Positions 12,604 to 63,426 of a DNA stretch of 64,000 nucleotides are shown piece after piece (position 1 is the first letter of the stretch; every line of letters begins with the position of its first letter). Below the pieces are notes generated by a model that ran no database searches, was not told where the DNA came from, and worked only from the letters and a program-made list of their open reading frames with translations. Position numbers and translations under genes: made by a program. This stretch comes from an uncultured Alphaproteobacteria bacterium (GTDB taxonomy: Bacteria > Pseudomonadota > Alphaproteobacteria > Rs-D84), in contig CAJOGC010000005.1 of the NCBI GenBank assembly GCA_905234185.1, forward strand, positions 936 to 64,935, written 5' to 3'.

Positions 12604-12611
12604 TGTGTGCC

Positions 12612-12937
12612 AGATTCACTATAAGCCGGATTCTGTACATGCCCCGGGCCAGTCATAGAACCATCCCGGGGTAGCGGACATAATTAATCTGCACCCGAAG
12701 TTACCAACGGGTGTCAAGCCCTCTACCCGCCACCTGACTGGGACATGTCAATTGGTGGCCTATTTGAAGTTGCTGCACATAGAGATTGGCCGTTTCAAAC
12801 GATTTTCATCGCATACGTTACTGTTCCTCTTATCGTCGGGTCACCCCGCCAGGCCGTTAGCCTGTATGCCGTCCCATGCAGTCCGGACTTTCCTCCGCCA
12901 CGTTGCCGCGACGGCTATGTCCCGTTCATCTGAACAT
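12612..12937 (-). ncRNA. rnpB: RNase P RNA (bacterial type A)
   Basis: Minus strand contains GGAGGAAAGTCCGGACTGCATGGGACGGCATACAGGCTAACGGCCTGGCGGGGTGACCC… and 3' ACAGAATCCGGCTTATAG (P4 halves AGGAAAGTCCGG / ACAGAATCCGGC). Boundaries are about ±15 nt. Confidence 0.8.
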
Positions 12938-33795: not shown

Positions 33796-33869
33796 GCGGG
33801 CGTGGTATAATGGTAGCACGTCAGCTTCCCAAGCTGAAGACGAGGGTTCGATTCCCTTCGCCCGCACCA
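33796..33869 (+). tRNA. tRNA-Gly (anticodon CCC)
   Basis: GCGGGCGTGGTATAATGGTAGCACGTCAGCTTCCCAAGCTGAAGACGAGGGTTCGATTCCCTTCGCCCGCACCA. Near-identical to canonical tRNA-Gly(CCC). CCA is encoded. Confidence 0.92.
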
Positions 33870-44405: not shown

Positions 44406-47046
44406 GTATTATCCTGATGTTATCTTCTTTGACAACCGCATCGCCGAGTGTTCCAAGCGCATCCCACAGCAATGCGTACCATGATTTTTCGTTCGCGTTC
44501 TTGTCCGATGTATGCCCATAGATATAAAGTTCATCCCGGGCGCGCGTCATTGCAACATAAAGCAACCTGTAATATTCGGCAAAACGAATATTCGACAGTG
44601 CGTCTGTTGCGGTTTCAAGATTTACGCTGGGTACCTGGCGTGGAACCCAAAGCCATGCCGGCGGTATATTTGGATCATATTCCATATCTTTTGGCATTAT
44701 GTCCGATGTTATTGGGACAACATTATCGCCCCGCGGAACCCGCAGGGTATCAATCAGAAACACAACCGGTGCTTCCAGTCCCTTGCTGCCATGAACGGTC
44801 GCGATCCGAACACCGGTCGATGCATTTATATCGCGTTTTATTTCGGAACCACCGGTTATGAACCATTTAAGAAAATGTCGCAATGTGCCAGGCTGGGTCC
44901 GTTCGTATGACAGACACAGTGTCATAAATTCTTCTAAGGGGTCTATTACCTGGGGCCCCAATGCGGACACAAAACTTTCCCGCACACCGGAATCAAATAT
45001 CCTTGAAAAAAACGAGTATGGCGCCATGGATGCCGACATATCAACAATAGATTTCAATCGTCCATGCACATCCGGATATTTTTGTTCCAGAGCATCAAAA
45101 ACTGTCATTTCTGATGTATTACCGACGCCATTTTTTGCCGTATTTTTTATTTTACATAAATCAAAAATATCGGCTTCGGTCAATCTGAAAATTGGACTTT
45201 TCAACACACAACATAAACTATAATCATCGGCCGTATTAAGACAGAATCTAACAAGATTCATAAGATCGCGTATTGCCGGAAACATTGGCAAAATAATGCG
45301 GTCTGTGCCAGCAACTTCGATATTTCGTTTCTTTAATGCCGTGACCAAAGGAACCACCATTGGATTACGATGCTGGACAAGCACCATTATGTCCCCTGGT
45401 TTATATTTTCCAGCGTCAAGTATCGATTTTATTTTGTCTGCTATGATTGAAACATATTGCTGGGTGTCGATACCGTCACCTTTTTTGGACATCATTTTTT
45501 GTAATTCGACAAGTCCGTCACCATCGCCACGAAAACAGACGTGATTATTATTGTGAAACCCCGTTGTTGCAATTACATCCGGATTGCCAAAAAACTCGTC
45601 CACTGTATATAAAATCGATGGCAATGAACGGAAACTCTGTGTTAATGGTATTTCACTTATTGTCCGCAAATTAGCCTCTATTTGACGTTTTATATCGTCA
45701 CGACTGGCTGCAAAAGCGCGCGAATCCGCGCCCTGGAAACCATATATCGATTGTTTTGTGTCCCCCACTACAAACAATGTATGTATATCGTGTTTGGTAT
45801 CACCATTTACAAAAAAATCACCGACCAGCATACGCAAAATATCCCAATGCAACGGCGATGTATCCTGGGCTTCATCAACCAAGATATGTGACAACGAAAA
45901 ATTTAATTGCGACAGCACCCAACCCATAACATCCGGTTTGGAAAAAAGTTTGCGTGTGCATAACACCAAATCATCAAAATCCAGCAAATTGCGCTGACGC
46001 TTTATATCACGATAAATATTTGTAAATGCCGCGGCTAAATCAAACAGCGCAACCGAATTCATAAAAATGTCCGCATTTATGTTATATTGATCGACATCGA
46101 AAACACGCGATTGTTCGTTGATCAAAAAACCTTGTTTTTGTATATGTTTTATCGGAGTTCTGTCTTTTGTCAAATATGCCGTCTTGTATTCATCAAAATC
46201 TATTGTTTTATCAATATACTTTTTTGTTAAATCAAACACCTTCATAAGGTACGCCGGCTGATTACCATCCGCTTTTATCTTGGCATCCAAGAAATCTGCT
46301 ATTCCGCGCAGTTCAGATTCCGGTACATCTATAACAGGGACCGAATCCAGTTTAAGAAATTTTCGCGTTGTATCAATAAAGTATTTGCGATACTCTTCGA
46401 TATTATCAACCATAAAAAAGTATTCGTATTGTTCGCTTAAAGTTTTCAGCAAAAGAGAAAGTCGTTGTTCACTTAACACATTCACAATACGCGCGAACGC
46501 ATCGCCAACACGACCATATTTAGCTGGTTCCAAATCAGACGCGTTTATAAGACGATCAAATGCCTCGTACTGCAAAACACGTTGATTCACATCAGACACC
46601 AATGTCCATGATGGGGATATGCCCGCCTCTAGCGGGAAGCGGCGCAATATTTCTTCGCAAAAACTGTGTATCGTTTTGATTTCAAGATTATCCGGATGAT
46701 CGATATACCAAAAGAAAACAGATCGTGCATGAGCAATATCATCAGCCGTCGCAGGTTTATTAAGCGCAACATCTTTCAATAATTCCACTAATTCTTCATC
46801 TGAGGCAACCGCCCAATCCCGCAATGCCCGCAAAATACGGTTGCGCATTTCACCCGCCCCGGCATTAGTGTATGTAAGGCATAATATTCCACTGTGTTCG
46901 ATATCATCAGATCTGAACAAAATTCGCAATAACCGCTGGACCAGAACACTTGTTTTGCCGGTACCAGCATTCGCCTGGACCCACACATTTCTGGACGGAT
47001 CCGCGGCATTGTCTTGTTCCGGTGATAATTCTGGTTTTTTGTTCAT
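44395..47046 (-). CDS. addA: UvrD-like SF1 helicase corresponding to the AddA N-terminal 880 aa
   Basis: Motifs GTGKTSVLVQRL and TIHSFC plus UvrD helicase motifs. No addB adjacent. Confidence 0.82.
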   Translation of the reverse strand: MNKKPELSPEQDNAADPSRNVWVQANAGTGKTSVLVQRLLRILFRSDDIEHSGILCLTYTNAGAGEMRNRILRALRDWAVASDEELVELLKDVALNKPATADDIAHARSVFFWYIDHPDNLEIKTIHSFCEEILRRFPLEAGISPSWTLVSDVNQRVLQYEAFDRLINASDLEPAKYGRVGDAFARIVNVLSEQRLSLLLKTLSEQYEYFFMVDNIEEYRKYFIDTTRKFLKLDSVPVIDVPESELRGIADFLDAKIKADGNQPAYLMKVFDLTKKYIDKTIDFDEYKTAYLTKDRTPIKHIQKQGFLINEQSRVFDVDQYNINADIFMNSVALFDLAAAFTNIYRDIKRQRNLLDFDDLVLCTRKLFSKPDVMGWVLSQLNFSLSHILVDEAQDTSPLHWDILRMLVGDFFVNGDTKHDIHTLFVVGDTKQSIYGFQGADSRAFAASRDDIKRQIEANLRTISEIPLTQSFRSLPSILYTVDEFFGNPDVIATTGFHNNNHVCFRGDGDGLVELQKMMSKKGDGIDTQQYVSIIADKIKSILDAGKYKPGDIMVLVQHRNPMVVPLVTALKKRNIEVAGTDRIILPMFPAIRDLMNLVRFCLNTADDYSLCCVLKSPIFRLTEADIFDLCKIKNTAKNGVGNTSEMTVFDALEQKYPDVHGRLKSIVDMSASMAPYSFFSRIFDSGVRESFVSALGPQVIDPLEEFMTLCLSYERTQPGTLRHFLKWFITGGSEIKRDINASTGVRIATVHGSKGLEAPVVFLIDTLRVPRGDNVVPITSDIMPKDMEYDPNIPPAWLWVPRQVPSVNLETATDALSNIRFAEYYRLLYVAMTRARDELYIYGHTSDKNANEKSWYALLWDALGTLGDAVVKEDNIRIIHGK

Positions 47047-47141
47047 TTATGCCCTTGCTTTATGAAAAAGATTCTAGTATAAATCATTACGAACTGCAAG
47101 AGCGATATTACATATCGTTAATATTTCGGGGGGAAAGACAA

Positions 47142-49079
47142 ATGGAAGGTGTTTTATCAAGCAATATTTTCGTGTATATTTGTGGTGGATTAGGATTTTT
47201 ATTAATAATCGCGTTAATCGCATTGTTTTTCATTTCACGCAAATCTCAACTGGTTATGCAATCTTTATTGGATATTATGTTGCGCCCAGAAAGTGCGCGC
47301 GTTGGCGACGCGACCCGTGTATTAAACTCCATTATGGCCACGGAAATCGCAAAAATAGAACAAAATTTTCGCATAATGTGCGAAACCATGAACGGTCAAA
47401 TCGCACATGCAAACGAACTTGAAAACCAACTGACCAAGCAAAACGAAAAATTGCTGTCTTTGGCCGACGCGGCGACAAAAAAAATGGCCCAGATGTCCGA
47501 CAGATTGGACAACACGCTTAACGGTATGAATACGATTGTCGGTTCACAGTCATGGAATGATGTCACAAATGCATCAGACCGGTTTTCGACCAATGTCAAT
47601 GAGTTGCTTAATAAAATTGATAAAACAACGAACGATACAACCGACCGCATCACCCAGATTCAACAGCAAATAGATTCCTGGGTTGAAACCAGCACCGATT
47701 TAAGTGGCCGGCTGGGCACTGAATTTGAATCTAATGCGACCCAGATGACCGATATCACACAAAAAGCGGCAACAATGCAACAACAACTTGAATCTTTGGC
47801 GCAGACGACCGCGGACGGGTTCACAAATGTCAAAAATGCATCGGCCGAATATACCGATATCATGGAAAAGAATAATGAAATGCTGGATAACCATCTTAAT
47901 AAACTTGATGCATTTTCCAAAATGTCAAAAAAACAGTTAGCCAGTCAAACAAATATTATAACCAACACCGCAAATGTTGTCGCCGGCCAGGTCCGACTGA
48001 CCGAGACATCCATTGAAAAACAAATTCGCAAATTATCCGACGCTGTTGACGCTTTGACCGCGTCCGCCACAGAAACCGAGGGGTCTGTGCGTGGGCTATC
48101 AACCGAATTAACCAATTTAACCAATCGGTTCAACCACGAAATCAAAGACTTTGCAACAGAAGTTGTTTCGGAATTAAAGACCGTGTCCGGGGTCGCAAAT
48201 ATTACACTTGAAAACACAAAAACCGCGGCAAACGCGTTTTCAGAGTCTGTTCGCACAATGGGAACCGGTGTCCGCGAAACTTTGATTGAAATGAATACCG
48301 CGCACACACAATTAACAGGCCAATCAGAAACGCTGATTAAAATGTCACGTGAAACCACGGAACAATTGCAACCACTGTCTGAACTTATCGAAAAGTATTA
48401 CGCCGCCCTGCCCGACCTGTCGCGTGATTCCGTGGCTGCGGGTGAAACGCTTGGTCGAATTGTCGCAGAATTAAATACCAGTATGGAAATGATGAAATCC
48501 ACGGTTAATGAATCAACCGATGCAATTTCCAAGTCGGCAACTCAGTTAGAAGAACTGGCCGGCGATTCAAGACAGCAAATGATTGATTTAATGTCGGACT
48601 ATGCCAAGGCCGTTGACACCATGCAAACACTGAATAAACAGATGATGGTGGCACGCGCGACGGCACCTATGGACGCGATTAAATCCACCCCGACGGACAC
48701 CCAGTATGGCCGCGTGAGCACAAGCGATTTCATTAAACAAAGCGAAAAAGTTTTTGGAAAGTTGCACGAACAATCAATTGATTTAACACGCGCGACCGGC
48801 GTCGACATCCCAGACAATATATGGAAGGCATATCATGACGGCGATACCGCTATATTTTCCAAATGGTTGGCTAAAATGCTAACCGCGGCGGATAAAAAGC
48901 AAATCCGTGACATGTTGAAACGCGACAGTGTTTTCCGGTCCCAGTCGTCACAATTTGTACGCAGTTTTGATAAAATAATGTCTGCATCGGAATCTGTGGA
49001 CAACGCAGAAAAAGTTGCGACGGCGTTGCTAAAAACCGACCTGGGACGGATTTATACCGCACTGAAGGGAAACATCTGA
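47142..49079 (+). CDS. Membrane-anchored long coiled-coil protein (645 aa)
   Basis: N-terminal TM (IFVYICGGLGFLLIIALIALFFI) followed by about 600 aa of heptad-like Q/N/T/L-rich sequence. RBS GGGAAAG. Confidence 0.55.
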   Translation: MEGVLSSNIFVYICGGLGFLLIIALIALFFISRKSQLVMQSLLDIMLRPESARVGDATRVLNSIMATEIAKIEQNFRIMCETMNGQIAHANELENQLTKQNEKLLSLADAATKKMAQMSDRLDNTLNGMNTIVGSQSWNDVTNASDRFSTNVNELLNKIDKTTNDTTDRITQIQQQIDSWVETSTDLSGRLGTEFESNATQMTDITQKAATMQQQLESLAQTTADGFTNVKNASAEYTDIMEKNNEMLDNHLNKLDAFSKMSKKQLASQTNIITNTANVVAGQVRLTETSIEKQIRKLSDAVDALTASATETEGSVRGLSTELTNLTNRFNHEIKDFATEVVSELKTVSGVANITLENTKTAANAFSESVRTMGTGVRETLIEMNTAHTQLTGQSETLIKMSRETTEQLQPLSELIEKYYAALPDLSRDSVAAGETLGRIVAELNTSMEMMKSTVNESTDAISKSATQLEELAGDSRQQMIDLMSDYAKAVDTMQTLNKQMMVARATAPMDAIKSTPTDTQYGRVSTSDFIKQSEKVFGKLHEQSIDLTRATGVDIPDNIWKAYHDGDTAIFSKWLAKMLTAADKKQIRDMLKRDSVFRSQSSQFVRSFDKIMSASESVDNAEKVATALLKTDLGRIYTALKGNI

Positions 49080-55392: not shown

Positions 55393-56493
55393 ATGAAATT
55401 TTTCAAGAAAATTGCTCTTGGCGGCGGTTTAATGTTGGCAATTGGTACAACTAGTAACAAAGCATTTGCCCAGAGCAACAAATCAATCACCTTTCGTGAC
55501 ACCATTATTGCGCCATACAACGTTTCCACACGCGTAATACCCATTGAATTGGGAGAAAAAATAAAGAAAATATGTTCTAGCGAAACAGCCCCTAGCCGTA
55601 AATACACCGTATCTGGAACCGTTGTTGCAAATATGTTATGGGACTATGCAGAATACGTTAACGACAGCACCGTTATCAATTATAGCGAATCCGACTGTAC
55701 CGTATATGGAACTAATGGTGTAATGGTGTATAACATTGACACAACTGGTGATGGCTTAGCCGATAAAAGCGTACAATTTCCAGTCGACATTCGTAATCCC
55801 AATAAACAAACCAAATATGATAAACGTGGCAAAATAATAACATGCAATGTCAACGAATATGATAATCGTGGTGGTATGCCAATAACTAAACAGGTTTTGG
55901 TTAAAGGTGTTAATCGCCGTAAAGCACCGGATAAGCATAAATATTATGTTCGCGACTCTGGTGATGATGTCTTTGAAATTTCCGGTCGGATTGTTGCACA
56001 AAATTGGGTATCTGAATGGTGGATTACCTCTGCAGATTGGGGGAACGGCATTGTGTCGTATGGTGGCGACATAGAAGAAGCTGATTTAGTAACAATTGCA
56101 TACTTTGTAGATGTGGACGGCAATGGTATTAGTGATATATGTTTACAATACATAAAACATATTTCAGATCCAAGAGTTGCAACATCATTCATAGGTAAAA
56201 ATGTATCTTGTGAAATAAATCGTAACAAGATAAATGAATATGATTTAGATAATCCTAAATACTATAATGCTATGCCTATGCATGACAATATGAATGACAT
56301 TATTCAAAATGAAATTGGCGTCGCCTATATATTAAATCCAGAAAAATCTGATGTTTGGAGCGGCAAAATATCGTACACGCCGTATAATCCTGATGCCATT
56401 TTACAATCATTTATCACACCAGAGGTTCTGAAGAAGAAACAAATTGCCTATATGCGATATATGCAAAAACAAGCAGACAAAAAACAACATTGA
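55393..56493 (+). CDS. Secreted hypothetical protein (366 aa)
   Basis: Signal peptide MKFFKKIALGGGLMLAIGTTSNKAFA. No recognisable domain. Confidence 0.5.
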   Translation: MKFFKKIALGGGLMLAIGTTSNKAFAQSNKSITFRDTIIAPYNVSTRVIPIELGEKIKKICSSETAPSRKYTVSGTVVANMLWDYAEYVNDSTVINYSESDCTVYGTNGVMVYNIDTTGDGLADKSVQFPVDIRNPNKQTKYDKRGKIITCNVNEYDNRGGMPITKQVLVKGVNRRKAPDKHKYYVRDSGDDVFEISGRIVAQNWVSEWWITSADWGNGIVSYGGDIEEADLVTIAYFVDVDGNGISDICLQYIKHISDPRVATSFIGKNVSCEINRNKINEYDLDNPKYYNAMPMHDNMNDIIQNEIGVAYILNPEKSDVWSGKISYTPYNPDAILQSFITPEVLKKKQIAYMRYMQKQADKKQH

Positions 56494-56524: not shown

Positions 56525-56613
56525 TGGCGGAGCGTATAGGACTCGAACCTATGGACCGCTATAACACGGTCACGGATTAGCAATCCGCTGCATTACCACT
56601 CTGCCAACGCTCC
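56525..56613 (-). tRNA. tRNA-Ser (anticodon GCU)
   Basis: Reverse complement GGAGCGTTGGCAGAGTGGTAATGCAGCGGATTGCTAATCCGTGACCGTGTTATAGCGGTCCATAGGTTCGAGTCCTATACGCTCCGCCA. Long variable arm. Confidence 0.9.
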
Positions 56614-56744: not shown

Positions 56745-58502
56745 ATGAAAGAATATATTTTGCCTTTTCGTGATTTGGTCGTGAATCCTGGTTTAACCGT
56801 TCCGATTTATATTGATAATCCGCTGTCTGTGTCGTGTATAGAAGCCGCAAGCAAAAACGGTGGCCGTATCGTCCTTGTTGCACAGCACTGTTGGGGTTAT
56901 CCCGCCAACGAGGTTGATATATACAAGGTTGGCACAATCGGCGAAATCGCCCAGGTTTTACGCATGCCGGACGGTTCATTGCACGCAATTGTTCGCACCA
57001 CAAGCGCGGTCCGTCTTTCCGGCATTGTGGTTGAAAACGGCATCTTTATGGGCGACATAACACCTATCGAAATACTAGACGACAGTGAATTTGACCAAAC
57101 TATCGCCCTGCGCGATAAAATAGCCAATAATATTCAATCAATGTCCACGGCCCGCAAACTTAAAATCGACAAATTACGCACTGTTATTCAGTCTTATCCT
57201 TTGCCGGCCTTTGTTGATACCGTTGTTCAAATGCTGGACATCGATACAGATGTCGCGATTAATATTCTTTGTGCAACGACATGGCGCGAAAAACTAATCA
57301 TTTTGCTGGAGCAAGTCAATTTGATGGCGGAAACCATGAAAATCGAGGATTCTATTAATCGTCGCATTAATCAACAAATGGAGAAAGGCCGTCGAGAGGC
57401 GATTTTACAGGAAAAAATGCGCGCAATTCAGGTCGAAATGGGCGAAAACACCGAAGAAATGGATGCAGAAAACCTGCGCGAACGCATCGAAAAGTCCCAC
57501 ATGTCTGCGGACGCCAAAGAAAAAGCACTGTCTGAATGGCGACGCATGCGCACCCTGTCCCCGATGTCGAACGAAGGCGGACTGTTGAAGGCATACTTGG
57601 ACGAAATGTTGTCTATGCCATGGAATAAGTATGACAAGCAGCCCATAGATATTCAGGCGGCCCGCGCGATTCTTGACAGTGAACATTCCGGAATGGATGC
57701 GGTCAAAGAACGCATTTTGGAACATATTGCCGTTATGAAAAAAACCGGCAAAAACAGTGGCAGCATTTTATGTTTCGTCGGCGCGCCCGGTGTTGGAAAA
57801 ACATCGTTGGGGAAATCTATCGCCGCCGCACTTGGTCGAAAATATCAACGCATATCACTTGGCGGTATTTCTGACGAGGCGCATTTCCGCGGGCACCGCA
57901 AGACCTATATCGGTGCACAAACGGGCCGCATTATGGACGCGCTTAAACGAAGCAAATCAAATAACCCCGTAATCGTGTTGGACGAAATTGATAAAATGAC
58001 GCGTGATTTTCGTGGTGATCCGGAATCTGCATTGTTGGAAATATTGGACCCGGAACAAAACAAAAACTTCCGCGATCATTATCTTGAGGTTGATTTTGAT
58101 CTGTCTAATGTTCTTTTTATTGCAACAGCAAACAGTCTGAACTTTTCCAATGCGTTAAAGGATCGTATGGAAATCATCGAAATTCCGGGATACAGCATGG
58201 ATGAAAAGGTTCGCATTGCCCGCGAACACTTGATTAAACGCGCGGCAAATGACACCGGATGGGCGGTTGAAAACATCACCATTTCGGACGATGCAATTCG
58301 CCATATCATTCAAAATTACACCAGCGAAGAAGGTGTTCGCCAATTACAACGCGAATTGACCGCTATTCTGCGCCGTGAATTGTTAAAGAACGACGGCAAC
58401 GACAAACCAACGGATTTTACACCAAATAAAATCGACGATTTATTATCACTGCAGCATTCCGCTGGATTTAGTAAAAAAATAGGATTTGGAGTAAGATTAT
58501 GA
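56745..58502 (+). CDS. lon: Lon-like protein with a Lon N-terminal domain and an AAA+ module that ends before the serine-protease domain
   Basis: Walker A GAPGVGKTS, Walker B VIVLDEIDKM, sensor-1 FIATANS. The ORF stops at 585 aa. Downstream ORFs are not protease-like. Confidence 0.78.
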   Translation: MKEYILPFRDLVVNPGLTVPIYIDNPLSVSCIEAASKNGGRIVLVAQHCWGYPANEVDIYKVGTIGEIAQVLRMPDGSLHAIVRTTSAVRLSGIVVENGIFMGDITPIEILDDSEFDQTIALRDKIANNIQSMSTARKLKIDKLRTVIQSYPLPAFVDTVVQMLDIDTDVAINILCATTWREKLIILLEQVNLMAETMKIEDSINRRINQQMEKGRREAILQEKMRAIQVEMGENTEEMDAENLRERIEKSHMSADAKEKALSEWRRMRTLSPMSNEGGLLKAYLDEMLSMPWNKYDKQPIDIQAARAILDSEHSGMDAVKERILEHIAVMKKTGKNSGSILCFVGAPGVGKTSLGKSIAAALGRKYQRISLGGISDEAHFRGHRKTYIGAQTGRIMDALKRSKSNNPVIVLDEIDKMTRDFRGDPESALLEILDPEQNKNFRDHYLEVDFDLSNVLFIATANSLNFSNALKDRMEIIEIPGYSMDEKVRIAREHLIKRAANDTGWAVENITISDDAIRHIIQNYTSEEGVRQLQRELTAILRRELLKNDGNDKPTDFTPNKIDDLLSLQHSAGFSKKIGFGVRL

Positions 58503-58876
58503 GCGAACAAGCAACAAAAACAGCCACATACCCCGATCTGGAAAATGGCCAAATGATAACTATCATAACCGATAAAGAAACGGCCAAAGCCATCCATGAA
58601 TACAACAGTATTTGTAATCAAATTCAGTCATTCAAAATAGATTCTCAGGTGATAACTGGTCTTAGTGGCCAGATTTGTGAAATATACAAAGCACAATCAC
58701 CAAAACTGAAAATCTGGTGCATAAGAAAATATCTGCCCTTGATTGACGACGATGTCTATGAATGTCGTATCGAAAGAAAGAACGACAAAGCAAATAAAGA
58801 CCCTGAATTGATTCTGGGTGGTGTGGAATACTTGTATTATAAGCTGCTTAGTAAAAACAGCGGGCGGGCAAAATGA
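58499..58876 (+). CDS. Hypothetical 125-aa protein (ATGA overlap with the lon-like gene)
   Basis: ORF only. Confidence 0.4.
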   Translation: MSEQATKTATYPDLENGQMITIITDKETAKAIHEYNSICNQIQSFKIDSQVITGLSGQICEIYKAQSPKLKIWCIRKYLPLIDDDVYECRIERKNDKANKDPELILGGVEYLYYKLLSKNSGRAK

Positions 58877-59418
58877 TTCTTGTACTGAACACATCCGGGG
58901 CCGATTTGGAATTTGTTTTGGATGACAAATATGCCCGCGTTTCTGTTGAAAAACAATCGGTTGCATTGCCCACCGAAACGGCGCGTTTTATCGCCAAATG
59001 TGGGGCAACATGGTCCGACATTTCCGCAATTGGTATCGTTGTTGGCCCGGGAAGTTTTACTGGTATCCGCTTGGGCATCGCCTATGTTAAGGGCTTAGGT
59101 CTGGGGCTGGACATCCCCGTTGTTCCAATAAACGCATTTGAATTGTATCTTGCGCAGACACCGGACGCGTTTGTCGCGATTGATTCCGGACATGGCGATT
59201 TCTTTGTTGGGGCCAAAAATTTACCGCCCTGTATTATGTCAATCGATGAAATCGAAACCAAACAAATGGAATGGCCACGCACGGTTGGACATCGCCCGTT
59301 TGACTTGAAATTAGGAACGCAAATCGTTCAAAATAAATTGGCACACCAAGGTAATGAACCAATTGTCCCGATGTATTTGCGTCCCAGTTATGTTGAAACT
59401 AATAAAAAGGAAAAATAA
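58873..59418 (+). CDS. tsaB: tRNA threonylcarbamoyladenosine biosynthesis protein TsaB (YeaZ)
   Basis: Motif …GPGSFTGIRLGIA…. Usual tsaB-rimI pairing. Confidence 0.8.
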   Translation: MILVLNTSGADLEFVLDDKYARVSVEKQSVALPTETARFIAKCGATWSDISAIGIVVGPGSFTGIRLGIAYVKGLGLGLDIPVVPINAFELYLAQTPDAFVAIDSGHGDFFVGAKNLPPCIMSIDEIETKQMEWPRTVGHRPFDLKLGTQIVQNKLAHQGNEPIVPMYLRPSYVETNKKEK

Positions 59419-59419
59419 A

Positions 59420-59749
59420 ATGGCAAACATTATTCAAAAAATATTTTTATCAAAATTCGAATGCTCTCTTATTGATGCGATAAATAAATCTGATGTGAAA
59501 ATGACGCACAACGATGATGTACAGCACATGTTTTCAACTACTTCGTACAGCATCAATAATAACAAAATGAATATTATGGCCGTACATCAGTGGCATCATG
59601 CCCAGGGCGATAACTATACACTTAATATCACCAGTGATTCTGAGTCACCACGAACACCAAACAGATATCTTGCCGATGATATTGTTGCCCATAAATTTGT
59701 ACGAAAAATATTTATGAGAATGCAACGCAAATATGCAAAACAAAAATAA
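59420..59749 (+). CDS. Small paralogue 1 of a 3-gene tandem family (110 aa)
   Basis: N-terminal MANIIQKIFLSKFECSLIDAINKSD is conserved with the next two ORFs. Confidence 0.5.
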   Translation: MANIIQKIFLSKFECSLIDAINKSDVKMTHNDDVQHMFSTTSYSINNNKMNIMAVHQWHHAQGDNYTLNITSDSESPRTPNRYLADDIVAHKFVRKIFMRMQRKYAKQK

Positions 59750-59759
59750 CGAGAATAAA

Positions 59760-60137
59760 ATGGCAAAAATCTTTCAACGTATGTTTTTATCTAAAAATAA
59801 AATTCGCATACTGGATATGATCGAAAATAATGCGGATAAAATAACGTATGATTATTACGAACACTCTTATTTTCCATACCATGAATTTACGATAAAAACA
59901 CCGACAAGCGTCCTTACATCTACATCGACCAGGGACAGATATTTGTTTAGCCGTACTTATATTTCACAATATAATTTCGCTGAAACTTTGCCAAACGGAA
60001 CCGTACACGAAGAATCCGAAGAGTTCACGCCTTTTGCTAACCGGGTTCATTCGGCTATGTTCCGCGCATTTATAAAGGCCAAGAGTATTGAGGCAATACA
60101 TAAAAAACAAGAAGATTTCCTGAAAAAACAAAGATAA
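59760..60137 (+). CDS. Small paralogue 2 (125 aa)
   Basis: N-terminus MAKIFQRMFLSKNKIRILDMIENNADKITY. Confidence 0.5.
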   Translation: MAKIFQRMFLSKNKIRILDMIENNADKITYDYYEHSYFPYHEFTIKTPTSVLTSTSTRDRYLFSRTYISQYNFAETLPNGTVHEESEEFTPFANRVHSAMFRAFIKAKSIEAIHKKQEDFLKKQR

Positions 60138-60160
60138 ATAAGTAAAAAGAGATATTAATT

Positions 60161-60520
60161 ATGGCAAGTTTTATTCACAAAATTTGGCTCACACCTGTTC
60201 AGTGCAAAGTATTGGATTTTATCAAAGAAAACGCTGATGCGGTTGAATACAAAAAAGGCAAAACGGTCGCTATTTTACCGGGTTATAACGAATATACCGT
60301 AAACCATGTATTTATACACGCAGACAATAAAGCATTACACGCGACACTTATCGCGCCCGAAAATAAGTCCCAGGATTTTAAATCGACATATTCATTTTCG
60401 TGCAAAAAACCGTGCACTAAGAAAAAATGCCCATTGCTTAATGCGACACAATCTGCTCATCACGGATTGACGACGGGTTTGCAAAAATGGTTTATGCCAG
60501 GATGTATAACAACTATATAG
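60161..60520 (+). CDS. Small paralogue 3 (119 aa)
   Basis: N-terminus MASFIHKIWLTPVQCKVLDFIKENADAVEY. C-terminal Cys-rich tail (CKKPCTKKKC). Confidence 0.5.
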   Translation: MASFIHKIWLTPVQCKVLDFIKENADAVEYKKGKTVAILPGYNEYTVNHVFIHADNKALHATLIAPENKSQDFKSTYSFSCKKPCTKKKCPLLNATQSAHHGLTTGLQKWFMPGCITTI

Positions 60521-60573
60521 AACACCAAAAAAATCGCGAGAAATGATGATAACCGCATTTCTATTGGATTACA

Positions 60574-60960
60574 ATGTTAAATAAGCTTGCCAATCTTCAT
60601 AAACAATGCTTCCCCGACAAACCATGGTCGGCATCTGATTTTGCAGAATTAAAGAAATCGGGGTGTGAAATTTTGGCGTCCGATAACGGATTTATAATAT
60701 GGCGAACAGTCGCAGACGAAGCCGAAATAATATCCATTGGGGTTGCCCCGAATGCGCGCCGTTCTGGTATCGCCGGTGCCATGATTTTGCTTATGGAACA
60801 AGAATTGAAAAAATCAGGTATTGTCAATGTGTTTTTGGAAGTTTCTGAAGTGAATATTCCGGCAAAAAAACTATATGAAAAATACGGGTTTGTACCGACC
60901 GGAAAAAGGCCCAAATATTACGATGGTACCGATGCAATTATCATGACCAAAAGGCTGTGA
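60574..60960 (+). CDS. rimI: Ribosomal-protein-alanine N-acetyltransferase (GNAT)
   Basis: 128 aa with a GNAT fold motif (…RRSGIAGAMI…). Position downstream of tsaB. Confidence 0.78.
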   Translation: MLNKLANLHKQCFPDKPWSASDFAELKKSGCEILASDNGFIIWRTVADEAEIISIGVAPNARRSGIAGAMILLMEQELKKSGIVNVFLEVSEVNIPAKKLYEKYGFVPTGKRPKYYDGTDAIIMTKRL

Positions 60961-62006
60961 AAATGAACGAAAAATCATTGTCAAAAACACACGGCAAAAT
61001 CCTGCAACGGGTTGCAAAAACAGATACAAATATACACGGGATAAGAAAGGCCGAAACAGTCCCTGCCCGCAAATTAAGCCTTGTCATATTTGGCGGTGAA
61101 AGAACTGTGAAAAACAAAGATGCAAACTGGTATATGTCGATGTTCGAGCGTCTTTTGCATTTTTATAATATACACGATGTCAACATATATTCTGCCGTTT
61201 ATGATTTCGAATCCACCAACAGGAAACCAGAACGCACAAATGCGTTTATTGCGGCCGGTCATAAAATAGCCAGGATGTATGGGGCCACAACACCCATTGA
61301 TACGCAATACATAGATGATTTATATCGAACCGTTGTCCGACCGCGTTTTATAAATAAAAACAATGAAATACTGTCAGAAATTGACGCAATAAATAATGTT
61401 CGACAACTGATTATCTTTGACCATTGTCATGGTGCCACACCGGTGCGCGCGTTCCAAGATATTATGGCATCAGATATGGAAAAATCCGGATATACACCAT
61501 CAACGATACGAAAGATTATGAAAAACCTGTTGGTTATTCAACACGCCCCCGTTGCGCCCCTGGAAAAATCGCGATTTAACACCGTCTCTTTTATGTCTGC
61601 GAATGACACACTCATGAATTTTTACAATAAAATTTCAGAATACATAGCAGATAATAATGCCGATGTATTACCGTCTTATATTTCATTGGGTAATTTTTTT
61701 GTCACCCACGCATTCACATACCAATACTTGGACGAACATTCTATTATTGGGCTGGTTCCGAATGAAATTTATGGTATGTTAACGCCGGACGGTGAAATAA
61801 TAATGGCTGCGGAACGCAATGCGATAATAAATGGCATTCGTGCCGCCCAGCAAGGCGCCCCGATGCCAACAATCCGCGAATTAATCGCCCCGGCATCTGA
61901 TAAAGATGCTATTAAACCAGACTTTGATACATTGATGCAGAACGGCGAATCCCTTATGAACATGATGCGTTATGATATGGCCCAGGAAAAATCGAAAGAA
62001 AGATAA
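60957..62006 (+). CDS. Hypothetical 349-aa protein
   Basis: ORF only. Convergent with the Pif1-like helicase, with a 5-nt gap. Confidence 0.45.
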   Translation: MKMNEKSLSKTHGKILQRVAKTDTNIHGIRKAETVPARKLSLVIFGGERTVKNKDANWYMSMFERLLHFYNIHDVNIYSAVYDFESTNRKPERTNAFIAAGHKIARMYGATTPIDTQYIDDLYRTVVRPRFINKNNEILSEIDAINNVRQLIIFDHCHGATPVRAFQDIMASDMEKSGYTPSTIRKIMKNLLVIQHAPVAPLEKSRFNTVSFMSANDTLMNFYNKISEYIADNNADVLPSYISLGNFFVTHAFTYQYLDEHSIIGLVPNEIYGMLTPDGEIIMAAERNAIINGIRAAQQGAPMPTIRELIAPASDKDAIKPDFDTLMQNGESLMNMMRYDMAQEKSKER

Positions 62007-62011
62007 CCCCG

Positions 62012-63283
62012 TCAAATATCATTGATAAAATCGACGACGCGCTGATCAAATATAACATCCCGCGGTCGCAACGGCGCAGACATGTGAATATCGGCCGCAC
62101 TGCGCGTACGCGACAGCGCGACATATGTTTGTCCATGCGCAAACGCCCCGCGCGAAATATCAACAATGACAGCATCTAAAGTTTTACCTTGGGCCTTATG
62201 TATCGTCATCGCGTACCCCAGGTTCAGCGGAAATTGTTTGTATGACCCAACCTCGGTTTCAATAATTTTGTCGTCCGCATCGCGCGAATATTCTATTTTT
62301 TGCCACTTTTCGGGCTTTACGACAACGACATCGTGCGTTTTATTTAGTAATTGGACAATTATTTCATGCGCCCCAAGTTGCTCTACAATACCCATTGATC
62401 CATTGTGCCATTTATCACCATTTTTAACAAAAACGACCAGTGCACCCTGCTTTAATGTCAGATTCATTGGCGCCGGTACATCGCGTTCAGAAAAATTGCC
62501 CGTAATTTCGCCGTTGTATGTCACATCTGGTGCAGCGATTTGATTTAACCTGTCGTCATTAATGCGTTCCGCAACCGCCCGAAACGGTGTAATTATAACC
62601 GCATTTGCGCGCCGCGATGCATCATCTATGCGACAATTATTGAAAAAATCCAGCGCCGATGAATCGTTTCCACGCAATCTCATAAGATTATCCAACAATT
62701 TATCGTCTTTTTGGCGATAAACTGTTCCGAAATTAAATGGAATAAATTCCGCACGCCGATATGCGTGCGAATCAAAGAAATATGCATTAGGGTGTTCGTA
62801 TTCGGTTGCATAGTATTTTTCCGCATCCCGCGTTATAACCGGCGGTAATTGAAACAAATCGCCAATCGCAACGATTTGGATTCCGCCAAACGGTTCATTA
62901 TTTCGCCGCGCCGCCCGCATAAGGTAATCCATTGCATCCAATAAATCCGGTGCAACCATCGATATTTCATCAATTATTAAAACATCGGTTCCACAGAGGA
63001 TATTTCGCGGCTTCGCCTTTAATTTCAACAATTCCATCATGATGAAATCGCGCGGCTGAATCTGGAACAACGAATGTATGGTTTGCCCCCCGACATTAAG
63101 TGCCGATACCGCGGTCGGACATGCACAAATAATGCGTTTTTTCGATGCGGATTTAATATAATTTACAAAAGTCGATTTTCCGGTTCCCGCCGGGCCCAGT
63201 ATAAGGATGTTAGATCGCGTATTTTCTAGTGTATTGAACGCGGCCATTTGCGATGGATTCAAAATCGGAACGATTGAAGACAT
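62012..63283 (-). CDS. Pif1-family SF1B DNA helicase
   Basis: Walker A GPAGTGKST. Motif II DEISMV. Pif1-signature GDLFQLPPV. 423 aa. Confidence 0.8.
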   Translation of the reverse strand: MSSIVPILNPSQMAAFNTLENTRSNILILGPAGTGKSTFVNYIKSASKKRIICACPTAVSALNVGGQTIHSLFQIQPRDFIMMELLKLKAKPRNILCGTDVLIIDEISMVAPDLLDAMDYLMRAARRNNEPFGGIQIVAIGDLFQLPPVITRDAEKYYATEYEHPNAYFFDSHAYRRAEFIPFNFGTVYRQKDDKLLDNLMRLRGNDSSALDFFNNCRIDDASRRANAVIITPFRAVAERINDDRLNQIAAPDVTYNGEITGNFSERDVPAPMNLTLKQGALVVFVKNGDKWHNGSMGIVEQLGAHEIIVQLLNKTHDVVVVKPEKWQKIEYSRDADDKIIETEVGSYKQFPLNLGYAMTIHKAQGKTLDAVIVDISRGAFAHGQTYVALSRTRSAADIHMSAPLRPRDVIFDQRVVDFINDI

Positions 63284-63349: not shown

Positions 63350-63426
63350 GGGTTATTAGCTCAGTTGGTTAGAGCGGAGCGCTCATAACGCTTTGGTCGT
63401 GGGTTCGAGTCCTACATAACCCACCA
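63350..63426 (+). tRNA. tRNA with CAU anticodon (elongator Met or lysidine-modified Ile2)
   Basis: GGGTTATTAGCTCAGTTGGTTAGAGCGGAGCGCTCATAACGCTTTGGTCGTGGGTTCGAGTCCTACATAACCCACCA. The anticodon stem lacks the three G-C pairs of an initiator. Confidence 0.85.

Follow-up and report, generated by a model that had tools for sequence, protein, structure and literature searches.

Small paralogous genes of an undescribed protein family form a variable array between tsaB and rimI in the alphaproteobacterial order Rs-D84

We have analyzed a 64-kb stretch of DNA (hereafter the window) from an uncultured alphaproteobacterium of the order Rs-D84 (GenBank assembly GCA_905234185.1, contig CAJOGC010000005.1, positions 936 to 64,935), in which three small genes lie between tsaB and a rimI-like gene. 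These genes, named A, B and C in their order, are part of a co-directional cluster (lon-like gene, 125-aa gene, tsaB, array, rimI, 347-aa gene; aa, amino acids). They belong to a protein family that is undescribed and whose fold has no detectable relative in the searches run. Sequence comparison shows the three copies to be true paralogs, and the array they form evolves by duplication, loss and cassette replacement. As such, a lineage-specific paralog array with birth-and-death in a variable slot between conserved genes is a known phenomenon. Unusual features are the strictly fixed slot of the array, which lies in the translation-related operon of a minimal genome, the ultra-conserved N-terminal decapeptide and the recombination breakpoints in the conserved ends. 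The initial annotation had placed three small open reading frames (ORFs) here, and they are indeed found at that position, co-directional and coding for 109, 125 and 119 amino acids:

59420-59749, plus strand: copy A, 109 aa, A-type subfamily
59760-60137, plus strand: copy B, 125 aa, B1-type subfamily
60161-60520, plus strand: copy C, 119 aa as read in this strain, C-type subfamily
59414-59455 with 59754-59795, plus strand: direct repeat of 42 nt, 81% identical

The paralogy is supported by several comparisons. Pairwise BLASTP is significant between A and B (E=4e-5, 12/31 identical residues) and between B and C (E=6e-6, 14/47 identical residues), and not significant by itself between A and C. 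When the whole window is translated in six frames (1227 segments), the best non-self matches of each copy are the other two copies, and no fourth family member is present within the 64 kb. A family profile recovers A, B and C from 5.8 billion proteins with E-values of 1e-20 to 1e-47. The 42-nt direct repeat includes, for A as well as for B, the ribosome-binding spacer and the 12 initial codons; it is a trace of tandem duplication. The common N-terminus that had been noticed initially reflects real paralogy, the significant A-B and B-C alignments covering the first 31-47 residues. The motif originally written for it is approximate: the N-terminus is shared, but B lacks Cys15 and A has I-D instead of L-D.

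An exhaustive profile search of 1.84 billion representative proteins finds the family in 80 clusters (50% identity). Its members have 88-147 aa, almost all of them aligning from the first residue or close to it, and they are hydrophilic and mostly basic (isoelectric point, pI, 8-10); no signal peptide, hydrophobic or membrane segment is present in the family proteins. Orthologs of copy A (P0004-P0007, P0020) are 41-56% identical over their full length. All taxon-labeled matches are Rs-D84/Candidatus Enterousia or unclassified alphaproteobacterial gut metagenome-assembled genomes (MAGs), and the family originates from gut and rumen metagenomes; named records are MAGs from the rumen of roe deer and the caecum of yak, labeled ‘Candidatus Enterousia sp.’ and ‘Alphaproteobacteria bacterium’. 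Candidatus Enterousia belongs to the order Rs-D84, uncultured Alphaproteobacteria with genomes mostly below 1 Mb that lack most biosynthesis, show no accumulation of pseudogenes and are proposed to be obligate, partner-dependent symbionts or parasites (PMC12306168). The adjacency of tsaB and rimI is reported to be a conserved context, the two genes being fused in some bacteria (PMC4926160). The suggestion that a lineage-specific, duplicating family interrupts this usual adjacency is borne out.

Based on BLAST clustering, the family is divided into six subfamilies, three of which are represented in the window:

Subfamily A: 22 clusters; window copy A; motif H-x-W-H-x-x-Q-G-D-N-Y
Subfamily B1: 11 clusters; window copy B; motif I-L-D-A-I-E-Q-N-A-D-K-I-x-Y-x-Y
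Subfamily B2: 25 clusters; no window copy
Subfamily C: 28 clusters; window copy C; cluster of Cys81 and Cys90, about half of the members ending in G-C-P
Subfamily E: 14 clusters; no window copy; Enterousia only
Subfamily D: 2 clusters; no window copy; divergent

The D-type genes of Candidatus Enterousia, which occupy array positions, are probably distant family members, as judged from an hhalign probability of 56% against the family (E 1e-4, 100 collinear columns). Two such genes (L013 3817-4188 and L014 5369-5740) encode 115-123 aa and begin with MTKEFYTKHK... or MTNDFYTRHK..., without the MANIFQKIF N-terminus. Database searches give no functional lead. Neither A, B and C nor 17 family members scanned match any family in Pfam or NCBIfam, a TsaD-family or TsaE match being likewise absent for the three copies in both databases. 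PADLOC has no match for A, B, intact C, B2, the 125-aa gene or the 347-aa gene, and for D only a sub-threshold E2 match (E 0.017). A profile search of the PDB sequences returned 0 matches at E<=10, and no family relatives are found in the viral contigs, phage records and plasmid records searched.

Structural models are available for B, which was predicted with AlphaFold from an 89-sequence alignment (predicted local distance difference test, pLDDT, 93.3; predicted template modeling score, pTM, 0.85), and for A, which was predicted from a shallower alignment and shows the same topology (pLDDT 78). The fold is confidently predicted to begin with two helices, followed by an antiparallel meander of five strands and, at the C-terminus, a long helix. 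In B these elements correspond to helices 2-8 and 12-23, strands 29-35, 38-46, 50-58, 67-76 and 82-88, and helix 91-107, followed by an additional, B1-specific C-terminal helix (110-124). A Foldseek search of model A against BFVD gave nothing significant, the best match (E 1.6e-3) being to uncharacterized proteins.

The segments with the highest information content are the decapeptide M-A-N-I-F-Q-K-I-F-L and the C-terminal helix F-A-x-x-V-Y-x-K-M-x-x-x-Y, and the inward-facing alternating residues of the strands are also conserved. All three window copies and 70/89 family sequences (~79%) have Ala2; an invariant Met-Ala N-terminus, considered as a candidate family feature, is weakened by the wider family, in which MT, MV, MI, ML, MP, MF and MN starts occur. 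The decapeptide is the least confident, poorly packed part of both models (pLDDT 49 and 66). High conservation combined with poor placement suggests that this amphipathic N-terminus may be a docking element. Its codons vary synonymously between copies and genomes, hence selection acts on the peptide and not on the DNA. Subfamily-specific conserved sites, in turn, are situated on the sheet and its hairpins, such as the His/Trp-rich hairpin of A and the Cys cluster of C.

For orthologous pairs with unsaturated synonymous divergence (dS), the ratio of non-synonymous to synonymous divergence (dN/dS) amounts to 0.105 (A), 0.14 (C) and 0.09 (B2), next to 0.05-0.1 for the flanking genes. Such values indicate that orthologous copies are under purifying selection and that the genes are real.

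Copy C of this genome is a frameshifted allele of a 127-aa gene and should be annotated as such. The following features are concerned:

60446-60449, plus strand: ACAC, two of the four bases being inserted relative to the intact allele (window GCG-ACAC-AAT, L008 GCG-AC-AAT)
60442-60546, plus strand: remnant of copy C's ancestral 3′ end in another frame, encoding ...CDTICSSRIDDGFAKMVYARMYNNYIEHQKNREK followed by a stop codon, the family C-terminal helix

Contig L008 (Logan SRR14574025) carries the intact allele, whose product is P0009 (127 aa); across 2072 aligned bases the contig shares 99.4% identity with the window, the AC being the only gap. Past the frameshift, the window copy has an unrelated tail of 24 residues, while the remnant recovered by three-frame translation matches the C-terminus of P0009 and the consensus F-A-x-x-V-Y-x-K-M; relatives of C end in a helix F-A-x-x-V-Y-T-K-M-L-N-x-Y. 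At least five contigs, from the three sources NCBI, ENA and Logan, carry the frameshifted allele, and one of these contigs differs by a single nucleotide polymorphism. The allele thus represents a real polymorphism and no assembly error. Programmed frameshifting was rejected as an explanation, there being no slippery site and the 99.4%-identical strain simply lacking the two bases. It is because of the 2-bp AC insertion that C lacks the C-terminal helix and seems divergent. The initial statement that the C-terminal halves of the three proteins diverge is therefore only half right: the C-terminal helix is family-wide and its loss in copy C is due to the frameshift.

In every fetched locus with enough flanking sequence, the array is located between tsaB and rimI of the same conserved cluster and comprises 2-4 copies. 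About nine architectures, built from the six subfamilies, are present in about a dozen lineages:

A-B1-C: window lineage
C-A-B2: L001/2, L004/5
A-B2: L009-11, L015, L018, L019
A-B2-C: L017
C-B2: L021
C-(B1 fragment)-A-C: L020
E-E-E: Enterousia L012
D-E-E-E: Enterousia L013
E-D: Enterousia L014

Most architectures contain the succession of an A and a B-type copy. The order C-A-B versus A-B-C might be taken for a cyclic permutation of the same three genes, but this is wrong: by clustering, the window B is of type B1 and the B of its relatives of type B2. The exchange of arrays is best illustrated by the L004 and L009 lineages. Their Lon-like, 125-aa gene, TsaB and RimI proteins are 98.9-99.8% identical, and their DNA is 97.5% identical until 28 nt into the first array gene. 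From there on, a C-type gene is found in L004 and missing from L009, the A copies share only 44% identity, with saturated synonymous sites (proportion of synonymous differences, pS, 0.71, compared to a dS of 0.04-0.15 in the flanks), and the B2 copies are 85% identical up to about codon 103, after which identity returns to about 99%. Both array versions are found in independent assemblies. A diverged array within near-identical flanks implies that recombination has replaced the whole array. The breakpoints fall, in the first gene, within the conserved N-terminal motif and, in the last gene, within the conserved C-terminal helix. In addition, near-identical strain pairs show three cases of an inactivated or absent C-type gene: the frameshift in the window, the absence in L009 compared to L004, and the changed start codon in L001, where ACG (L001, 5605-5610) replaces the ATG of the near-identical L002 (4175-4177), a second independent inactivation. 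Minimal, presumably partner-dependent genomes keep, duplicate and exchange these genes, which are therefore likely to matter for the lifestyle of their hosts.

In this study, we tentatively propose that the array encodes specialized paralogs of a clade-restricted family, which serve as non-redundant subunits tied to the translation-related operon. The coexistence of subfamilies together with the recurrent succession of an A and a B-type copy leads us to regard the paralogs as cooperating, non-redundant subunits. They would form homo- or hetero-oligomers via the exposed face of the sheet, the conserved N- and C-terminal helices would dock them onto a common partner or act as a framework, and their ligand may be RNA, single-stranded nucleic acid or a translation-apparatus protein. 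The array would then be a clade-specific accessory module of the tsaB-rimI operon, with copy C as a dispensable add-on. The mechanistic part of this proposal, i.e., oligomerization, docking and binding of RNA, single-stranded DNA or translation proteins, is put forward with low confidence. A role with RNA or single strands, or in translation, is suggested by the basic charge, by the linkage to tsaB and rimI and by a weak resemblance to beta4-alpha single-strand-binding modules, the sole theme with functional information that recurs independently in the Foldseek lists of both models: the A model weakly matches PBF-2/WHY2 (Whirly) and MRP1/2, the B model Borrelia Pur-alpha (3nm7, probability 0.77) and the PC4-like protein of T5 (4bg7). 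PC4, Whirly and PUR-alpha modules (1l3a, 4kop, 3nm7, 4bg7) are, like the family as modeled, small and basic, with an antiparallel beta-meander followed by a long helix, and these known modules work as dimers of like or paralogous units.

Several observations nevertheless weigh against this proposal. With both models, Foldseek finds nothing significant in the PDB (best E 0.027-0.1, query-normalized TM-score at most 0.45), and the matches to the PC4, Whirly and PUR-alpha modules in particular, with E-values of 0.12-0.5 and TM-scores of 0.25-0.38 (query) and at most 0.43 (target), are not significant. The family differs from these modules by its five strands and two extra N-terminal helices, and has no similarity to the PC4 profile, the hhalign comparison of the family with human PC4 being negative. 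On the exposed sheet face no residue is conserved family-wide, contrary to what a shared nucleic-acid-binding surface would predict, and a conserved aromatic or basic sheet surface is not seen across the family. Finally, near-identical strains differ by wholesale cassette replacement, which one would not usually expect of a housekeeping accessory factor and which fits a conflict-type locus equally well or better.

Such a conflict cassette has some chance of being the correct explanation. The array proteins would then be diversifying immunity proteins, inhibitors of a variable partner or phage target, or exported effectors of the symbiont, whose constant termini provide a common handle or export signal and whose variable sheet forms the specificity surface. 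This fits the differing arrays in strains with flanks that are 97.5% (DNA) and 99-100% (protein) identical, the A copies with 44% identity and saturated synonymous divergence, the presence or absence of the C-type gene and its threefold inactivation or absence in near-identical pairs, as well as the roughly nine architectures in a dozen lineages. A decapeptide that is highly conserved and yet poorly packed in the models, and hosts with reduced, partner-dependent genomes (PMC12306168), also speak in its favor. Opposed to this are the lack of any PADLOC match, of a toxin, transporter, recombinase or mobile-element gene in the cluster, and of relatives on the viral contigs, phages and plasmids searched. 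Moreover, orthologous pairs show purifying rather than positive selection (dN/dS 0.09-0.3), a signal peptide or hydrophobic segment is missing, and the position inside a housekeeping operon is strictly fixed.

Hypervariable islands, defense hotspots and the hsdS-type shuffling of variable domains between conserved segments offer a comparison here. Like these variable cassettes, the array has conserved flanks, is exchanged wholesale with breakpoints in short conserved coding segments, and shows presence/absence among close strains. In contrast to them, it comes without recombinase, inverted repeats, mobile-element genes or a known defense protein, and it lies within a housekeeping operon of a minimal genome, in the same orientation.

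A more doubtful explanation considers the array proteins as clients of the adjacent RimI-like enzyme. After removal of Met1, the N-terminus Ala-Asn-Ile-Phe-Gln-Lys would be acetylated and subsequently dock onto its partner; in a variant of this idea, the proteins would compete with bS18 for RimI. The resemblance of the bS18 N-terminus A-R-Y-F-R-R to the pattern A-x-(I/Y)-F-x-(K/R) is no more than a lead, and a bS18 gene for comparison of the N-termini was sought in the window and not found there. The extreme N-terminus is the most conserved part of the family, with Ala2 in 70/89 sequences, and the genes always adjoin rimI. RimI of E. coli and Salmonella acetylates bS18 at Ala-Arg-, and the M. 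tuberculosis enzyme has a relaxed specificity and acetylates in vitro the N-terminal peptides of neighboring-gene products (PMC4926160). The likeness to these RimI substrates lies in a conserved Met-Ala N-terminus next to a rimI-like gene. However, Ala2 is not invariant, as it is found in only ~79% of the members, several of the start variants would retain Met1, and the proteins are unrelated to bS18. Likewise, only peptides, and not the folded neighbor proteins, were acetylated in the case of M. tuberculosis (PMC4926160).

A related scenario, in our opinion also improbable, regards the tsaB-rimI gap of Rs-D84 as a dedicated cassette-exchange site that swaps modules of a new fold. Recombination at the codons of the 5′ decapeptide and of the 3′ helix would exchange the variable modules, the Ala-led N-terminal helix, possibly acetylated by RimI, would dock onto TsaB/TsaD, the ribosome or the Lon-like ATPase, and the variable sheet would set specificity. 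If true, an obligate gut symbiont with a minimal genome would diversify a translation-linked or partner-interaction function in this way.

Even less probable is that the proteins are substrates or adaptors of the Lon-like AAA+ protein, with the hydrophobic/aromatic decapeptide as a putative recognition tag for the Lon N domain. The lon-like gene heads the cluster in every long locus, and the motif is amphipathic, rich in Ile and Phe and modeled with low confidence, as expected of a flexible tag. The evidence for this explanation is purely one of gene context; lon-like, tsaB and rimI are conserved genes of housekeeping type, and their sharing of an operon may have unrelated causes.

The initial annotation had further raised the possibility of winged-helix regulators or toxin-antitoxin antitoxins, which we now consider very unlikely. 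Small size and tandem arrangement would agree with it, as would a helix L-[ST]-P-x-Q-x-x-[IV]-L-D-x-I that superficially resembles the first helix of LexA- and MarR-type domains. Yet, in both AlphaFold models the segment supposed to start a winged helix (L-T-P-V-Q-C-K-V-L-D-F-I in copy C) forms a single helix (12-23) that runs straight into the beta-meander, with no helix-turn-helix (HTH), and Pfam, NCBIfam and PADLOC contain no HTH, toxin or antitoxin match. An antitoxin role is contradicted by the copies being mutually homologous and mostly basic (pI 8-10) without a partner toxin, and by the lack of RelE, ParE or antitoxin structures in the 50 top-ranking Foldseek matches listed with each model. 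RelE/ParE and type II toxin-antitoxin proteins share with the family a size of about 100 aa, basic character, N-terminal helices followed by a small antiparallel sheet, and location in adjacent genes. The array differs from them in having no match to their hidden Markov models and no acidic antitoxin, in consisting of paralogs throughout and in its fixed chromosomal position across the order.

That the copies are spurious or decaying ORFs without function in an AT-rich spacer is hardly credible, and at most applicable to copy C of this strain: a low GC content (31-37%), missing database annotation and the frameshift and repeated loss of C-type genes stand against about 80 conserved clusters at 50% identity, dN/dS far under 1 with selection on the motif at the peptide level, a confidently predicted fold (pLDDT 93) and retention in genomes of <1 Mb without pseudogene accumulation (PMC12306168).

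Two further comparisons concern the genomic neighborhood. Pcc1 and Gon7 of the KEOPS complex are small, partly paralogous alpha/beta proteins that dimerize via their sheets and attach to TsaD/Kae1. The likeness to the array consists of small alpha/beta paralogs next to tsaB; no match in sequence or fold was obtained, and the link is one of gene neighborhood. Bacterial t6A (N6-threonylcarbamoyladenosine) synthesis is known to require only TsaB, TsaD, TsaE and TsaC; the array proteins, with their helix-meander-helix organization of about 110 aa, belong neither to the ASKHA (acetate and sugar kinase/Hsp70/actin) proteins as TsaB and TsaD do, nor to the P-loop ATPases as TsaE does. A precursor of a ribosomally synthesized and post-translationally modified peptide (RiPP) or bacteriocin was excluded as well, given the globular fold (pLDDT 93), the conserved C-terminus and the lack of a modifying enzyme or transporter in the cluster. 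With three proteins of about 110 aa and one acetyltransferase, the system is a small, testable target, which bears on the question why rimI travels with t6A genes and on how minimal symbionts diversify function.

The genes surrounding the array are as follows:

56745-58502, plus strand: lon-like gene (Pfam LON_substr_bdg, AAA, Lon_lid), first of the co-directional cluster
58499-58876, plus strand: clade-specific gene of 125 aa, ATGA overlaps with the lon-like stop and the tsaB start
58873-59418, plus strand: tsaB (t6A complex dimerization subunit), 181 aa, left flank of the array
60574-60960, plus strand: rimI-like GNAT N-acetyltransferase gene, 128 aa, right flank (Pfam Acetyltransf_1, E 7e-13)
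60963-62006, plus strand: clade-specific gene of 347 aa, closing the co-directional cluster, no Pfam match
62012-63283, convergent on the cluster: PIF1 helicase gene

Within the cluster, start and stop codons overlap or are 2-50 nt apart, copy A starting 2 nt past the tsaB stop. Because of this tight spacing, the array is most likely co-transcribed and in part translationally coupled with tsaB and rimI. No convincing terminator is present within the cluster; terminator-like matches are modestly above the expectation from shuffled sequence, promoter-like matches are as numerous as expected from it, and both are hence uninformative. An Rfam scan of the region returned no RNA family. The GC content of the array (31-37%) compares to a window mean of 43.7%.

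The tsaB gene is identified by TIGR03725 (79.3 bits, cut-off 69.3) and by the Pfam TsaD family (E 9.4e-15), and is 78% identical between lineages with a dN/dS of 0.06-0.1. Of the 212 positions of the TsaB model, only 1-125 are aligned by its short product (181 aa); the C-terminal half of TsaB is divergent or reduced in this clade. The rimI-like gene has TIGR01575 (rimI) as its best NCBIfam match, with 83.4 bits slightly below the cut-off of 86.4, and is 83-90% identical between lineages. The Lon-like protein combines a substrate-binding N domain, an AAA+ module and a lid without the protease domain, and matches TIGR00763 over positions 2-564 of 795 only. This truncated form (585-614 aa, 76-93% identity) is kept in all related loci. 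In PADLOC, the Lon-like and PIF1 proteins match generic ATPase and helicase models only.

The 125-aa gene has no match in Pfam, NCBIfam or PADLOC and evolves fast, with 31-40% identity between lineages and ~18% to Enterousia. A hidden membership in the array family was ruled out for it (hhalign probability against the family 0.1%). The 347-aa protein is represented by 44 clusters, 0 of which are functionally named, the sole taxon label being an alphaproteobacterial MAG. It carries a conserved motif F-D-H-C-H-G-A (HCQGA or HSHGA in relatives), whose resemblance to a Cys/Ser nucleophile elbow hints at an alpha/beta-hydrolase-like enzyme.

The cluster is preceded by a tRNA-Ser(GCT) gene just upstream (56525-56613, minus strand), and the PIF1 gene is followed just downstream by a tRNA-Met(CAT) gene (63350-63426, plus strand). 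Elsewhere in the window are a tRNA-Gly(CCC) gene (33796-33869, plus strand) and the RNase P RNA (12606-12933, minus strand). Two further ORFs without a Pfam match (55393-56493, plus strand, 366 aa; 46950-49079, plus strand, 709 aa) are candidates for clade-specific proteins. In the related MAG contig L009 (10110-12357), a giant ORF of 4430 aa with a weak Flg_new match begins just past the PIF1 gene, possibly coding for a symbiont surface or adhesion protein.

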